DNA from: Planctomycetota bacterium
Lineage (GTDB): Bacteria; Planctomycetota; UBA1135; UBA2386
DNA: 64,000 bases
Assembly: GCA_965228735.1 (NCBI GenBank)
Contig: OZ245838.1
Coordinates: forward strand, 3,232,001-3,296,000
Direction: 5' to 3'
Shown here: piece after piece, positions 1,272 through 8,212 of the stretch
Layout of the letters: each line of letters opens with the position of its first letter
Numbering within the stretch: the first letter of the stretch is position 1
The notes under the pieces: model-generated
The model's database searches: none
Told to the model about the DNA's origin: nothing
What the model saw: only the letters and a program-made list of their open reading frames with translations
Made by a program: the position numbers and the translations under genes

Positions 1272-3605
1272 ATGAAGTCACTCGCGCTCGGTCTGGTTCC
1301 CGGCTCGCTGCTCCTCGTGGCCGGTCTGTCCGCCCAAGGCCTCCCCGAATCGATCCAGTCCGACCTGCAGCCGGCCACGTCGGCCTTGCCGCGCGTGCCG
1401 ATCCACACGGCGGCTCCCGAGGGCGTCACGGCCTACGGCACCTGGGCTGCCGGCGACGCCTACAAGTGCTCGTTCCACGACGGCATGACGTTCGTGCCCT
1501 ACCTCGGCGACTACCCGCAGAACCAGCCGTGGTCGTGGCGGACGACTTCGGTCCGCGCCGGCGAGGTCGAGCTGCTCGCCGCGAACGAGGACGGCCCGCT
1601 GCCGGCCGCGCACTGGCACGACGAATGGCGCTACGAGTATCGCATGGGTGCGTTCACCGAAGCCTACGACGTGCTGCACGAGGGTCTGGAGCAGACGTTC
1701 GTCGTCACCCAGCTGCCGGCCGCCGGCGACCTCGTCGTGCGCGGCGCGGTGACGTCGGATCTCTCGACGCGGGACGCGGCCGCGGCGCAACAAGAACTGA
1801 CCTTCGCCGATCGCGACGGGCTCGCGATCCTGCGCTACGGCCAGGCGCTCGCGTTCGACGCGGCCGGCAACACGACGCCGGTGACGACAGCGTTCGCCGG
1901 CGGCGAGATCACGCTGACCGTCCCCGGCGCCTGGCTCGCGCACGCGACGCTGCCGGTGACGGTCGACCCGTTGCTGACCCCCGCGATCGTCGGCTCGGCG
2001 CTCGCGAAGATCACGGACATCGGGCACGACGACCGCGCCACGACGAAGAACGTGATGTACGCGATCACGATGCGGGTCTCCAACTTCGACGACGACGTGC
2101 GGGCCTACCTGTCCGACCACGACCACACGAACAGCAACTCGGTGTTCGCGGACATCACGTCGGGGTGGGACAGTGACGACGCCTCCTGCGCGTTCGTCGG
2201 TGGCACGGATCGCTGGGTCATCGCGCTGCGCCGCTACTTCCCGACGTGGGGCATCCGCCGCAGCCACCTGCGGGCGCACCTGCACGACAGCGCCGACCCC
2301 CAGTTCCTCACGAACGTGATCTACATGAGCACGCCGACCGGTCACAACGACTGGCGCCCGGACGTCGGCGGCGTCGAGGGCAACGCGAGCGGCAACAACG
2401 CGCTCGTCGTGTTCCAGCGCGAGGACAACGCGATCTCGCCGTACACCGGCAACTTCCGCGACACGGATACGAGCGCGACGTGGGCCGTGCTGCTCGAGAC
2501 CGCGTCCCCGAGCGGCTCGTTCGGCACGCCGACGCGTTACCTGAGCGGACCATCGCAGGACGCGGAACGGCCGTCGGTCCAGCCGATGGCCGAGGGTGGC
2601 TCGCAGTTCTTCTGGGTCGTCGGCGCGCAGCATTACGCCAGCTTCCTGCCGGACGACGACTGGGACGTGTTCGTCGCGCGCATCGACCAATCGGGCAACC
2701 TGCTGCCGGGCTACTGGAAGCCCGAGATGCACGCCGCCGACACGCACCACCAGCTCGGCGTGCAGCTCGACGGCCAGGACGGACGCTACCTCGCGTGCTA
2801 CTCCACCGTGCAACGGCCGACGACGCCCGCGAAGTACGGCAACGTGCGCGGGGAACGTCTCTGCGTCGAACGCTTCGACTGGAGTCAGAGTTCGTCGGCG
2901 ACGCCCGTGACCTACCCGATGGTCGAGATCGAGACCGCGAGCACGCCCGTGTTCGAACCGGGTGGGGTCGCGTTCGACAGCAACGATCGCTCGCACTTCG
3001 CCATCGGCTACCGCGACATGACAGCGACGCTGCGGGCGGTCAAGTACGCGCGCGTCGGCTACACCGGCAACGTCACCGAAGGCCCAGCGTTGCTCTTCGC
3101 AGCGGCCGGCATGACGCCGTCGAACGCGAGCTGCATCTACATCGGCGATCTTCGTCGCTTCGCGTTCTGCTACAGCGCGCCGCTCGCGACGCCGCGGATC
3201 TACGGCCGTTCGCTCGCGGACGCCCCGGCGCCGCCGGTCAGCGCGACCGGCTTCGGCTGCAGCCCGGCCACCATCAGCTGGAGCGGCCGCCGCCAGATCG
3301 GTTCGGAGTTCGAGACGATCCGCATCCAGGGCGCCGGCAACGGCGCGGGCAACTTCATGCTCGTGTCCCTCGCCAGCGCCGATCAGCTGATGATCTACCC
3401 GGGCGTCGCGAGCGGCTGCCGCCTGCTCGTCGACAACGGTCCGGCGTTCCTCGGAACGATGCCGTTCCGCGCCGGCAACAACGCGTCGTGGCGCTTCCCG
3501 CTGCCCGAATGGCTGCCGACCACGACGCTCTACTTCCAGGACTGGATCCTCAGCGGCCACTCGTTCGAGAGCTCGCGCCGGCTCGCGGTCACCGTCGTCA
3601 AGTAG
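1272..3605 (+). CDS. Large secreted beta-rich protein with shared C-terminal domain
   Basis: 777-aa ORF; signal peptide ending LSA-Q; N-terminal domain ending VTVDP; C-terminus GFGC...GC...LYFQDW...SSRRL. Confidence 0.8.
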   Translation: MKSLALGLVPGSLLLVAGLSAQGLPESIQSDLQPATSALPRVPIHTAAPEGVTAYGTWAAGDAYKCSFHDGMTFVPYLGDYPQNQPWSWRTTSVRAGEVELLAANEDGPLPAAHWHDEWRYEYRMGAFTEAYDVLHEGLEQTFVVTQLPAAGDLVVRGAVTSDLSTRDAAAAQQELTFADRDGLAILRYGQALAFDAAGNTTPVTTAFAGGEITLTVPGAWLAHATLPVTVDPLLTPAIVGSALAKITDIGHDDRATTKNVMYAITMRVSNFDDDVRAYLSDHDHTNSNSVFADITSGWDSDDASCAFVGGTDRWVIALRRYFPTWGIRRSHLRAHLHDSADPQFLTNVIYMSTPTGHNDWRPDVGGVEGNASGNNALVVFQREDNAISPYTGNFRDTDTSATWAVLLETASPSGSFGTPTRYLSGPSQDAERPSVQPMAEGGSQFFWVVGAQHYASFLPDDDWDVFVARIDQSGNLLPGYWKPEMHAADTHHQLGVQLDGQDGRYLACYSTVQRPTTPAKYGNVRGERLCVERFDWSQSSSATPVTYPMVEIETASTPVFEPGGVAFDSNDRSHFAIGYRDMTATLRAVKYARVGYTGNVTEGPALLFAAAGMTPSNASCIYIGDLRRFAFCYSAPLATPRIYGRSLADAPAPPVSATGFGCSPATISWSGRRQIGSEFETIRIQGAGNGAGNFMLVSLASADQLMIYPGVASGCRLLVDNGPAFLGTMPFRAGNNASWRFPLPEWLPTTTLYFQDWILSGHSFESSRRLAVTVVK

Positions 3606-3677: not shown

Positions 3678-4700
3678 ATGAGACGAATGCTCGGATCCCC
3701 CGGCCGGACGGAGCGGCGGCTCGCCATCGCGCTGGTTGCCGGCCTCGCCGTCACGTTGCCGGCCGAACGCGGCCGCACGCAGGGGCCGCCGCGCCCCGGT
3801 GTCACGGCGGACTGGGGGCAGATCGAGCGCCGGATCGCCTGGCACGGTACGTGGGCGGGCGCGCTCGAGGCCGCCGCCGCGACGAAGCGCCCGATCCTGC
3901 TGGTCGCCGCCGCGCCGCACTGCGGACTCGTGCCGGGGATGTGGTGACCCGGCAAGCAGGAGATGGACAGGAGTTACCTGTCCGACCCCGCGGTCGTCGC
4001 CGTGTCGCGTGATTTCGTCTGCGTGAGGCTGCTGACCTACGAGAACGCAGCCGAAGCCGAGATGTTGCAGCAGGTGTTCCGCGGCCGCGACGGCCTCGAG
4101 AACTCCGTGTTCGCGCTGCTCGACCCCGAGGGCCGGCGGCCGCTCGCGCGCACGGGTCGCAGCCCGTCGTTCGCGTTCCGCGATGCCGCGGCGTTGGCCG
4201 TGAAGATGGGTGGAATCGCCGAGCGCTACCCGGGCCGCAGGAACGCGAACGAGCAGCTCGACCTGCCGCTGCTAGTCGACGTGCGCCGCGCGCTCAACGT
4301 CGCGGCCGCGGATCAGCAACAGCTGATCATCGTCTGCGGCCAGGGCAAGGCGCGCGATCAGCTCCAGTCCGAACTGAGCCGACTGGCGTGGTCCGACGAC
4401 CTCGTCGGCCGCTTTCTCTACGTCGCCGCGAGCGACCGGACCGACTGGGACACGATCCGGGGCAGCGCGGATCGCCCGGAGTCCGGGCTGCTGGTCGTGC
4501 AGGCCGGCGAGTTCGGCACGACGGGCCGCGTCGTCGCCACGTTCGCCGGGGTGCCGAGCCAGCAGGAACTGCTCGCGGTGCACGACGAGCGCGAGGCCAA
4601 GGCCATCGACACCCAGCAGCTGCGGCGCCGCGGCATCCGCCGGGGTCTGCGCTGGCAGACCGAGATTCCGGTCACGGACCGCGGCGGCCGGCGCCCCTGA
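3678..4700 (+). CDS. Thioredoxin-fold protein, probable selenoprotein (in-frame TGA at 3945-3947 read as Sec)
   Basis: ORFs 3627-3947 and 3963-4700 are in the same frame, separated only by TGA + CCC GGC AAG CAG GAG; the joined sequence IAWHGTWAGALEAAAATKRPILLV...HCGLVPGMW-U-PGKQEMDRSYLSDPAVVAVSRDFVCVRL reads as one Trx-like domain; hairpin downstream of TGA. Confidence 0.8.
3965..3983 (+). promoter_or_regulatory. Candidate bacterial SECIS hairpin
   Basis: GGACAGG-AGTTA-CCTGTCC: perfect 7-bp stem with a G-containing 5-nt loop, starting 17 nt after the in-frame TGA. Confidence 0.7.
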
Positions 4701-4834: not shown

Positions 4835-7531
4835 GTGAGCAGCTCCTCCGAATCCAGCCCCTCGACCGTCGCGATCGAGTTCCTCACCGTGTTCCTGCAG
4901 GACCGGGAGGACGGCAGGAAGCGCACGCTCGAGGAGTACCAGGCGATGTTTCCGCACGCCGAGGCGGTCATCGCCCGGGAGTACGACGCCGTCATGGCAC
5001 CGGGCGCGGCGACGCGGGACGCCGCCCTCGAGGCCGTCTCCCGGGCCGATCGCTACGAGGAGATCGAGGTCGTCGCGCGCGGCGGCATGGGGACGGTGCA
5101 CCGGGTGCGCGATTCGGCGCTCGGCCGACTCGTCGCGATGAAGCTGCTCGGCGACGGCAAGGGCAGCACGACGCTGCCGGCTCCCGAAGCGCTGTCCCGC
5201 TTCCTCCACGAGGCCCGCATCACGGCGCGCCTCCAGCACCCGAGCATCGTGCCCGTTCTCGACCTCGGCGTGGACGCGCAGCAGCGGCCCTACTACACGA
5301 TGCCGCTGATCGCCGGCGAGAACCTCGCGGCCTGGATCCGGGGCAACGACGTCGCCGACCCGCGCTGCCTCGCGCGCGGCGTCGCCATCCTCGAACGCGT
5401 GAGCGACGCGATGGCGCACGCCCATTCCAGGCACGTGATCCATCGGGATCTCAAGCCGGCGAACGTGATGCTCGACCACGACGGCGCGGTCTACGTCGTC
5501 GACTGGGGCGTCGCGCGGGCGCGTGACGACGAGCACGAAGCGGTCCACCCCGATCGCGCCGGAACCAACGGACGGGTCGATGCCTCGCGGCAACGATCGA
5601 CGGGGTCGGCGATCTTCGCGGGCGTCCGCACCCAGGCCGGCGACGTCGTCGGCACCCCGGCCTACATGGCGCCGGAGCAGGCGCGGGGCGAAGCCGTCGA
5701 CGAACGCAGCGACGTCTACGCGCTCGGCGCGATCCTCTATCACCTGCTGACGCGACGCCCGCCGTACGCCGGGCAGGCCGACACCGCGACGCCCGAACTC
5801 GTGCGCCAGGGCCCACCGACCGCGCTCGCGATCTGCGCGCGTACCGCGCCGCCGGCGCTCGCGGCGATCTGTGAACGTGCCATGGCGCGAACGGCGGCGG
5901 ACCGGTATCCGACGGCGCGGGAGTTCGCGGCCGAGCTGCGCGCGTTCCTCGACAATCGCGTCGTGCAGGCCTACGCGACGGGGCCCGTCGCCGAGCTCTT
6001 CACGTGGACCCGGCGCAACCGCGGCCTCGCGGCCGCGAGCCTGCTCACGGTTGCGGCCCTCGTCGCCGGCATTGGAGTGAGTCTGCAGCAGAAGTTCGCG
6101 GCCGACGCGAACGCGAACCTCGCGGAGCAGAACCTCGAGATGGCGTTCGCCGCGGCCGAGGGCCTACTCGTCGAGTTCGGTGAGCACACCCTGGCGAACG
6201 ATCCCGCTGCCGACCCGCTCCGTCGGGCGCTCGCCGACCGCGCGCTCGCGTACTACCGGCGCTTCACGGAGCTGCGCGGCGATGACCCGCGCGTGCACGA
6301 GCTCGTCGCACGATCGCACTTCCGAATCGGCCTGCTCGAGGCCCGGCTCGGCCAGAACGAGCGCTCCACAGCGGCGCTCGAGCGGGCGCACGAGGCCTAC
6401 AGCGCACTCGCGCGCGCATTGCCGGACGTGCCGGCCATCCGCAACTGGCTCGCCAGGGTCGAGACCGAACAGCAGATCCACACGCTGCGCCGCGGCGCGT
6501 TGGACGAGGCCGCCGCGGGCTTCCGCGCGATCATCGGCCGGGCCGAGGAAGCGCTCGCCGCGATCCCGGCGACGGCGGATCGGGAGGAGACCGAGATCGA
6601 GCTGCTGCACACGATCGCGTGCGCGAAACACAACCTCGGACTCGCGCTCATTCGGAAGCGCCAACCCGAGGCGGCGCTTTCGGTGGCGAAGGAGAAGGTC
6701 GCGATCGGGCAACGGCTCGTGGCCAGGCAGCCGGACAGTCCGCTCGCGCAACACCGTCTCGCGACCGGCCAGCTGCAGGTCGCGTCCGTTCTGCGCGACC
6801 TCGAGCGTTTCGAGTCCGCGGACGCGGTGCTCGCCGCAGCGTCGAAGCGCATCGGTCCGATCGTCGAGGCGATCGACAACCGCGGCCTGCGGACCGTGCT
6901 GGCCGAGATCGAGAACCTGCGCGGCACGATCCTGCGGCAACTGCGACGCCCGACGGATGCGATCGCGGCGTTCGAACGCGCGATCGCGGTGCAGCAACGC
7001 CTCGTCGCCGCGAATCCGAACGTGCTGGACCACCAGACCCACCTCGCGGGCTCGTTGTGCAACCTCGGAGTGATGCGGCTCGGCCGCCGACAGATCGAGG
7101 AGGCGCACGACCTGATGCAACGGGCGCTCGAACACATCCGGCGCGCGCTGGCGATCGACCCGAACGCGCCGGTCGCGCGCGACTACCGCCGCATCATCGC
7201 GCGCGAGTTCAACAACGTCGGCTTCGCCCTGGCGCTCTACGACGACATCGCGCGCCAGACGCTCGAGTTCGTGGGCGAGCAGCCGGACGAACACGACTGG
7301 TTCGCGGCCTACGCGCTCGCCGGCTGCACGACGCTGGCGGCGCGCGACGCGACCCTGTCCGATGCGGAGCGCTCCGAGAAGGTCGGCACCTACGGCGACG
7401 CCACGATGCGTCATCTCGAGGCCGCGAAGGCGAGCAACACGCTGCAGCCAGGACGGCTCGGCCACGAGACGTTCGCCGGGCTGCGCGACCGCGAGGACTT
7501 CCTCGAGTTCCTGGCCGAACTCGGCCGGTAG
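4835..7531 (+). CDS. Membrane Ser/Thr protein kinase with C-terminal TPR region
   Basis: ARGGMG, VAMK, HRDLKPAN, DWG, GTPAYMAPEQ, SDVYALG motifs; TM segment; TPR-like helices. Confidence 0.93.
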   Translation: MSSSSESSPSTVAIEFLTVFLQDREDGRKRTLEEYQAMFPHAEAVIAREYDAVMAPGAATRDAALEAVSRADRYEEIEVVARGGMGTVHRVRDSALGRLVAMKLLGDGKGSTTLPAPEALSRFLHEARITARLQHPSIVPVLDLGVDAQQRPYYTMPLIAGENLAAWIRGNDVADPRCLARGVAILERVSDAMAHAHSRHVIHRDLKPANVMLDHDGAVYVVDWGVARARDDEHEAVHPDRAGTNGRVDASRQRSTGSAIFAGVRTQAGDVVGTPAYMAPEQARGEAVDERSDVYALGAILYHLLTRRPPYAGQADTATPELVRQGPPTALAICARTAPPALAAICERAMARTAADRYPTAREFAAELRAFLDNRVVQAYATGPVAELFTWTRRNRGLAAASLLTVAALVAGIGVSLQQKFAADANANLAEQNLEMAFAAAEGLLVEFGEHTLANDPAADPLRRALADRALAYYRRFTELRGDDPRVHELVARSHFRIGLLEARLGQNERSTAALERAHEAYSALARALPDVPAIRNWLARVETEQQIHTLRRGALDEAAAGFRAIIGRAEEALAAIPATADREETEIELLHTIACAKHNLGLALIRKRQPEAALSVAKEKVAIGQRLVARQPDSPLAQHRLATGQLQVASVLRDLERFESADAVLAAASKRIGPIVEAIDNRGLRTVLAEIENLRGTILRQLRRPTDAIAAFERAIAVQQRLVAANPNVLDHQTHLAGSLCNLGVMRLGRRQIEEAHDLMQRALEHIRRALAIDPNAPVARDYRRIIAREFNNVGFALALYDDIARQTLEFVGEQPDEHDWFAAYALAGCTTLAARDATLSDAERSEKVGTYGDATMRHLEAAKASNTLQPGRLGHETFAGLRDREDFLEFLAELGR

Positions 7532-7543
7532 CAGGAGTCACCG

Positions 7544-8212
7544 ATGGCAGAATCACACGATCCTCAGGTCAGCGGCACCGAGACCGGCAACGGATCGGCG
7601 ATGCCGTCCGACGAGATCACGAGCCTGCACGTTCGCCGCGCCGTCGACGGCAACCAGGCGAGCGTCTCGTGGCTCGTGGAGCGTCTCAATCCGCTCCTCC
7701 TGATGCAGGCGCGGTGGCGCATGCGCGGCCAGCTCGCCGGCATCTGCGAACCTGCCGATCTCGTGCAGGAGGCCTGGATCGTCCTGCTGCCGCGACTGCC
7801 CGAACTCGAGCACCGCGACGGCCGGCTGACGCCGGTGCTCCTGCGGTTCCTCACGTCGTCGATCGTTCGCAAGCTGCACAACCTGCTGCGGCGCGAAGCC
7901 CGCCGCCGGATCCACAACGGCAACGACGACGACAACCGCAGCGATCCCGACCCGATCCACCCCGCGACCGGCGTCGTCTCGGGCATCGTCCGAGGCGAAC
8001 GCCAATGCCAGGTCCGCGACGCGCTCGACCGCCTGACGGCCGACGACCGCGCCGCGATCGTGATGCGGGGCATCGAGCAGCAGGAACTCCCGAACGTGGC
8101 CGCCCACTTCGGAGTCACGGTCAAGGCGATGTCCAAGCGCTACACCCGCGCGCTCGCGCGGCTGCGCGAGCGCCTGCCCGAATCAGTCTTCGCCGAACTA
8201 GCGGACGAGTAA
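7544..8212 (+). CDS. ECF RNA polymerase sigma factor
   Basis: Region 2 (DLVQEAW) and region 4 (ALDRL...AIVMRGIEQ...VAAHFGVT...RAL); AGGAG RBS upstream. Confidence 0.85.
   Translation: MAESHDPQVSGTETGNGSAMPSDEITSLHVRRAVDGNQASVSWLVERLNPLLLMQARWRMRGQLAGICEPADLVQEAWIVLLPRLPELEHRDGRLTPVLLRFLTSSIVRKLHNLLRREARRRIHNGNDDDNRSDPDPIHPATGVVSGIVRGERQCQVRDALDRLTADDRAAIVMRGIEQQELPNVAAHFGVTVKAMSKRYTRALARLRERLPESVFAELADE

Follow-up and report, generated by a model that had tools for sequence, protein, structure and literature searches.

Screens for bacterial selenoproteins make use of Cys/Sec pairs (PMC13188914 section 6), and BSepDB, according to the available text of its description, searches only previously reported families (PMC13326102). 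The hairpins that accompany bacterial selenocysteine (Sec) codons are described by a set of bSECIS criteria, namely a loop of 3-9 nt with a G in its first two positions, a stem of 4-16 bp, a distance of 16-37 nt from the UGA, and an MFE <= -7.5 (PMC13188914 section 5). In the thioredoxin fold, the nucleophilic Cys of the CxxC motif sits where the active-site helix begins, as set out in the available text of PMC2757866. One catalogued family with a domain of this type, VPGUxxT, is listed with one Sec in a 2026 table (PMC13188914), and it includes the best relative of the gene described here among the thioredoxin-like proteins encoded in the same genome (15.8 bits, hhalign 91.7%).

This gene lies in a 64,000-nucleotide window, i.e. 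the whole stretch of DNA that was analysed, from a Planctomycetota genome assembled as a single contig (7.19 Mb, 69% GC). Positions 3678-4700 of the forward strand form one frame, interrupted only by TGA 3945-3947 before it ends at TGA 4698-4700. The original prediction held that the open reading frame track had split one selenoprotein gene in two, and both parts indeed share this frame with one internal TGA. What looks like two small genes is very likely a single one, which encodes 340 aa if Sec is inserted at TGA 3945 and terminates in a true TGA stop. The internal TGA corresponds to residue 90 of 340 (KRPILLVAAAPHCGLVPGMW-[TGA]-PGKQEMDRSYLSD, translated around U90 as PHCGLVPGMW-U-PGKQEMD). 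A further in-frame ATG is found at 3687, the genome holds a single copy of the family, and no promoter- or terminator-like sites were found. A sequencing or assembly error as the origin of the TGA was considered and rejected, since other assemblies repeat the TGA and homologs conserve the column. Specifically, no differing letter was seen over 3600-4800 in contigs from 4/4 public runs (4 studies), two near-identical runs of which may be the source sample itself.

Homologs revealed a broad and divergent family with a conserved TGA at this column. Across 401 genomes of the phylum, 51 genomes matched in a protein search (47 of them strongly), and all 53 full-length matches from a profile search of the same genomes hold one TGA, with a single broken copy also containing two TAG. 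No related locus was found in a search started from the single protein, and an alignment query gave 207 confirmed GTDB loci, the best 80 of which belonged by title to Planctomycetota (56), Verrucomicrobiota (18), and others (6). Within Verrucomicrobiota the family is rare, occurring in 1/301 genomes searched, namely the centre genome. Overall, 315 clusters at 50% identity reached E <= 1e-30. The codon at the column was TGA in 110/110 loci (97 distinct). At 90% identity these 97 sequences form 76 clusters, and at 70% they form 53, with a median pairwise amino-acid identity of 43%. Immediately after the TGA, the amino acids P-G are invariant with free third codon positions. The stop codons at the actual gene ends vary (TAG 39, TGA 31, TAA 26), and an alternative genetic code was rejected, since the gene itself and 31/97 homologs terminate in TGA. 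We also observed tandem full-length paralogs in a Verrucomicrobiota genome (L290/L291, G401:C275:549-2573), both with a signal peptide and TGA, and three copies (L252, L260, and L261) disrupted by a frameshift or in-frame stops shortly past the Sec region. These are either misassembled or pseudogenes, and L252 and L260 retain an intact hairpin.

Downstream of the TGA, the sequence contains a SECIS-type hairpin (3964-3984, forward strand) exactly as claimed originally, with the stem GGACAGG (3965-3971)/CCTGTCC (3977-3983), the loop AGTTA (3972-3976), and a spacer of 17 nt. Its G is in the second loop position, 24 nt after the UGA, and its parameters all fall within the bSECIS ranges (5-nt AGUUA loop, 7-8 bp, 24 nt, -12.3 kcal/mol). 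The stability of the hairpin on its own is modest (z of -2.35, -1.40, and -2.89 for three stretches), hence the case for a SECIS element rests on conservation. Over 28 distinct sequences, 93.7% of the cells of a 9-pair helix were paired and 7 cells had changed on both sides, although the helix structure was derived from these same 28 sequences, which biases the result in its favour. Covariation was 0.227, a value reached in 0/500 shuffles, and 25-52% of cells were paired in slid controls. Codon choice is a cleaner sign of hairpin constraint than covariation: the Arg codon inside the hairpin is AGG in 74/78 cases vs. 6.7% elsewhere in the same genes, and the Ser codon is AGT in 92/92 vs. 13.7% elsewhere in the same genes. 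In metagenomes, a pattern that did not constrain most of the hairpin, nor the upstream Cys at -8, returned 105 distinct matches, and all 7 stem pairs were kept in 95 of the 103 that could be scored. A genome-wide scan for similar hairpins returned the selenoprotein gene as the only credible match, and the other selenoprotein candidates of the genome carry different hairpins.

The source genome encodes the full Sec machinery that the prediction had called for, i.e. selA (454 bits), selB (337 bits), selD (367 bits), and tRNA-Sec, the selC product (76.6 bits), all above curated cut-offs. Its selD is itself of the Sec type, with one in-frame TGA. Among Planctomycetota genomes with strong matches to the family, 46/47 hold selA vs. 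288/401 overall (lists matched by eye), and selB and tRNA-Sec were found in the 47th, such that all 47 show Sec machinery, which we take as consistency and not as a statistical test since related genomes are not independent. Similarly, selB was found in 5/5 tested genomes behind non-Planctomycetota or untitled family records. Taken together, the conserved TGA column, the hairpin, and selABCD support the claim of Sec insertion, and the internal UGA is very likely decoded as selenocysteine.

Sec use in the source genome is broad, with further Trx-like and MsrA-like genes carrying TGA at the catalytic Cys. One of these (L271, G000:C1:6693479-6694357, minus strand) is a true VPGUxxT type 2 member (NF041383, 390 bits) with two in-frame TGAs, one in VPGUKTC and the other in QTUFW, which falls within an MsrA-like segment and is accompanied by a good hairpin. 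Four further candidate selenoproteins, each with a downstream hairpin, are located on the same contig (G000:C1) at 4985234-4985500 (minus), 4375152-4375418 (plus), 4263392-4263568 (minus), and 5365542-5365829 (minus); three of these have Thioredoxin_7 domains (UPPC, UPHC, and UGSC) and one is MsrA-like (LGUFW). Planctomycetes are absent from the main texts, as available, of the 2026 review (PMC13188914) and of BSepDB (PMC13326102).

Databases hold the family almost only as its C-terminal half. A single one of 41 database homologs spans the Sec site, and, as anticipated for a gene split by annotation, only 3 of the top 150 representatives cover it, the other 147 beginning past the Sec codon. 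NCBI names for this C-terminal half are hypothetical or thioredoxin family protein. The four database homologs that do span the site all have Cys at the column and retain C-x7-C, so that the column is TGA or Cys and never another residue. In these four, the Ser of the hairpin is replaced by Asn, Thr, Gly, or Arg, a loss that would be expected if the RNA constraint were gone, as read from proteins and not codons. When the active-site DNA pattern was recast with a Cys codon, it had 0 matches in JGI metagenomes, vs. at least 120 with TGA, although this pattern is narrow and 3/4 Cys-type proteins would not match it by their residues. This rarity of Cys-type homologs may explain how the family was missed by screens relying on Cys/Sec pairs. 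Conversely, the few that exist make the chemistry of the family testable without Sec expression.

Structural modelling suggested a two-domain protein (pLDDT 93, pTM 0.91) behind a predicted export signal (3678-3764, forward strand). The latter includes a basic N-region and hydrophobic residues 15-25 (mean hydropathy 2.8), with a cleavage site that is atypical in this member. By a hydrophobicity heuristic, an h-region was detected in 88/96 homologs vs. 3/97 for a control segment, in line with the export signal initially proposed, and export is on this basis highly probable. Several of the exceptions carry N-terminal fusions, e.g. with a Planctomycete cytochrome c domain. In L036, L039, and L041, such a domain (PSCyt1) is found between the signal peptide and the Sec domain, a possible hint of electron transfer. 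Domain 1 (3819-4241) has a Thioredoxin_7/DsbD-gamma/DsbH-type fold that contains the Sec, with a PF13899 score of 29.8 bits for a cut-off of 27, thioredoxin topology in the model, and a match to 3f9u (Z 12.5, rmsd 2.9, 123 residues aligned). Domain 2 (4257-4679; model pLDDT 95) corresponds to the second, degenerate thioredoxin-like segment of the original prediction: it has no Pfam match and no conserved active-site Cys, and the 44 rows listed by Foldseek (best E 7e-3) consist entirely of chains of the thioredoxin/PDI/AGR type, complexes or fusions that contain thioredoxin, and a designed protein. This domain probably serves for scaffolding or binding rather than catalysis, and is followed by a conserved C-terminal W-x-T-x-I-P-V-T-D tail.

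Within domain 1, the predicted Sec90 (3945-3947) follows Trp at the thioredoxin active site (W-U-P-G-K), and in the model caps the N-terminus of the active-site helix, which is the position of the nucleophilic, N-terminal Cys of CxxC. The second Cys and the cis-proline of classical CxxC/UxxC dithiol oxidoreductases are both absent. Position +3 after Sec90 is Lys (92) or Tyr (5) across the 97 homologs, and the residue aligned to the cis-proline is Thr (86), Ser (10), or Phe (1), as placed by sequence alignment (E-N-S-V vs. N-N-P-V of the VPGU protein of the same genome). In this member the site corresponds to Asn142 and Ser143 (4101-4106), with the preceding Asn found in 97/97. Instead of a UxxC/CxxU pair, there is, as noted initially, a Cys at -8 (HC-x7-U). 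This Cys82 (3921-3923, TGC) is found on an inserted loop and is conserved in 97/97 homologs, 105/105 metagenome matches, and 4/4 Cys-type homologs; the adjacent His81 position is not (Gln 47, His 45 of 97). In gapless register against CxxC relatives, Cys82 from the N-terminal side and U90 from the C-terminal side both land on the first Cys, and hhalign against the VPGU protein displays an 8-residue gap, which suggests that an insertion doubled the nucleophile position. The C-x7-U spacing is thus, judging from these alignments, the result of an 8-residue insertion. Other invariant residues include the polar Thr120, Glu122, Glu126, Asn142, and Arg161, as well as Cys115 on strand beta2 (4020-4022, 97/97), which is probably structural because it is also found in several ordinary CxxC relatives (L255, L256, L257, and L259). 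A Cys at position 211 occurs in 63/97 homologs and is Ala in this member. Divergent subfamilies with W-U-K-G retain the upstream Cys at another spacing, i.e. C-x3-U (-4) in L251 (G247:C15:97149-98090) and C-x8-U (-9) in L262 (G364:C118).

Based on these features, we propose that SelB and tRNA-Sec, with SelB bound to the downstream hairpin, would decode the internal UGA as selenocysteine to yield what is probably an exported two-domain thioredoxin-fold redox enzyme. The Sec90 selenolate would attack an oxidised substrate, and Cys82 on the 8-residue inserted loop would take the resolving role lost from CxxC, forming a Cys82-Sec90 selenenylsulfide that reduction in the periplasm, e.g. through a DsbD-type pathway, could reset. 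That Cys82 and Sec90 act as a redox pair is, on balance, the probable reading, and a Cys on a loop before Sec presumably recalls SELENON. Since the cis-proline is missing and the polar residues are invariant, a specific small oxidant or a single partner would be likelier than general protein disulfides. Among the top 25 neighbourhood clusters of 97 loci, no conserved operon pointed to a substrate or reductant, and the neighbourhoods displayed only generic families and lineage-level synteny, as with the sulfatase that follows the gene in Verrucomicrobiota. In the window, the gene is preceded by a 777-aa protein (1272-3605) that starts with a signal-like segment, lacks significant matches in Pfam and NCBIfam, and ends 72 bases ahead of the gene, and is followed by a Ser/Thr kinase with TPR repeats and then an ECF-type sigma factor (4835-8212), a pairing common in Planctomycetota. 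There was no sign in the window of a link between the selenoprotein and these flanking genes.

Three other explanations were weighed against this mechanism. If the TGA were an ordinary stop, separating two genes or marking a pseudogene, the downstream half could start on its own, as permitted by an ATG at +6 codons in 81/97 homologs and in agreement with its annotation as a separate protein. Such a stop would, however, cut a thioredoxin domain at its active site, at a column that is always TGA while terminal stops vary, and ahead of a P-G that is constrained as protein and not as DNA; the +6 ATG is also absent in 16/97 homologs, and full-length Cys-type homologs exist. For a reading as Cys or Trp, the only TCA-anticodon tRNA listed by ARAGORN in this genome is tRNA-Sec, and we regard this whole set of explanations as highly improbable.

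The remaining two accept Sec90 and differ in the role given to Cys82. In one, the protein is a peroxidase-, reductase-, or dehalogenase-like enzyme that works through a single selenol recycled by an outside thiol, with Cys82 engaged in a structural disulfide. Cys115 and the Cys at position 211 could indeed pair with Cys82 instead in an oxidising periplasm, which predicted export would provide for, and the Asn just before strand beta3 is one we take to be reminiscent of glutathione peroxidases. Sites of the Cxxc type with one catalytic residue are moreover common in the fold, based on the available text of PMC2757866. Yet Cys115 lies at the start of beta2, which fold topology puts at the end remote from the active site, and this Cys is shared with relatives devoid of Cys82, while divergent members keep a Cys near Sec despite varied spacing. 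In addition, fold matches are to simple thioredoxins and not peroxidases, and a single-selenol enzyme seems unlikely. The order of secondary-structure elements in the model is that of a simple thioredoxin, and neither peroxidases nor deiodinases are among the fold matches listed, although such folds may lie outside that list. In the other, Sec90 and Cys82, with nearby acidic residues, bind a soft metal or metalloid without redox catalysis. The invariance of the Cys, the Sec, Glu122, and Glu126 would fit such a site, and SCO1, a protein of this fold, has a copper role. The only wider dithiol spacing catalogued in the fold, CxxxC, is of the SCO1 type (available text of PMC2757866). Against metal binding, the closest folds are the DsbD-gamma, DsbH, and ERp18 oxidoreductases, metal-homeostasis genes are not recurrent in the top neighbourhood clusters, and His81 varies, which makes this role quite unlikely. 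A Cys82-Sec90 redox pair accordingly remains our preferred reading.

More broadly, the numbers of clusters and loci make this family a sizeable addition to the bacterial selenoproteome. The family also suggests that marine and freshwater Planctomycetota employ selenium beyond the cytoplasm. Tentatively, and with slightly less than even confidence in the combination as a whole, it could represent a new thioredoxin-fold active site with an insertion-duplicated nucleophile, C-x7-U in place of CxxC, no cis-proline, and a dedicated extracytoplasmic substrate, in a family that relies nearly exclusively on Sec, spans several hundred divergent clusters, and would be part of a large, missed exported selenoproteome of Planctomycetota. 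The degree of surprise is limited, as the decoding follows the usual route and no kind of selenoprotein is more common than those with a thioredoxin fold.

Compared to known systems, the locus resembles canonical bacterial UGA/SECIS decoding, with a hairpin that fits the bSECIS description and a full machinery, and departs from it in the primary sequence of the hairpin, which is unusually conserved across phyla. With VPGUxxT proteins (NF041383/NF041382; OS_HP5 in Table 1 of PMC13188914), it shares a Thioredoxin_7-type domain, Sec at the nucleophile position, a SECIS within the ORF, a V-P-G near Sec, and an Asn before strand beta3. The family nevertheless scores 16-17 bits with the VPGUxxT models for a cut-off of 275, placing it outside of them, and has V-P-G-x-W-U rather than V-P-G-U, an 8-residue insertion with an upstream Cys, neither Cys nor Thr at +3, no cis-proline, and a thioredoxin-like second domain where VPGUxxT has an MsrA-like one. 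The Trx7/PDZ (seleno)protein NF041199 is also of the Thioredoxin_7 type and weakly matched 15/31 family members (best E 2.5e-5); its catalogued motif is CxxU with a PDZ domain, in contrast to C-x7-U-P-G-K and no PDZ match here, and the protein from this gene did not match this model, for which the score cut-off is 300, and falls outside it. No sequence relative was found in the PDB. DsbD-gamma, DsbH, and ERp18/AGR2 proteins (PF13899, PF03190) share the fold of domain 1 and the exported setting (3f9u, 2ju5, 2fwf, and 1sen; Z 10.8-12.5, rmsd 2.9-3.4, 117-123 residues, 14-21% identity), but have the classical CxxC and cis-proline, whereas this family lacks the second Cys and the proline and has an extra domain. 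The PDI a-b architecture (4el1 and 2b5e, the top two-domain Foldseek matches) likewise places a Cys-free thioredoxin domain after a catalytic one, although with a different domain arrangement (whole-model TM 0.2-0.3, rmsd > 14), such that it is an analogy only. The motif C-x7-U without cis-proline is absent from the 119 families in Table 1 of PMC13188914, compared by motif and not by representative sequences, and no description of the family was found in the literature searched. Within the catalogues checked, i.e. the NCBIfam selenoprotein models and this 2026 table, the original suggestion of an undescribed family therefore holds. Overall, the locus is very probably a selenoprotein gene and represents a real new family with an unusual active-site layout, within the known kind of thioredoxin-fold selenoproteins.
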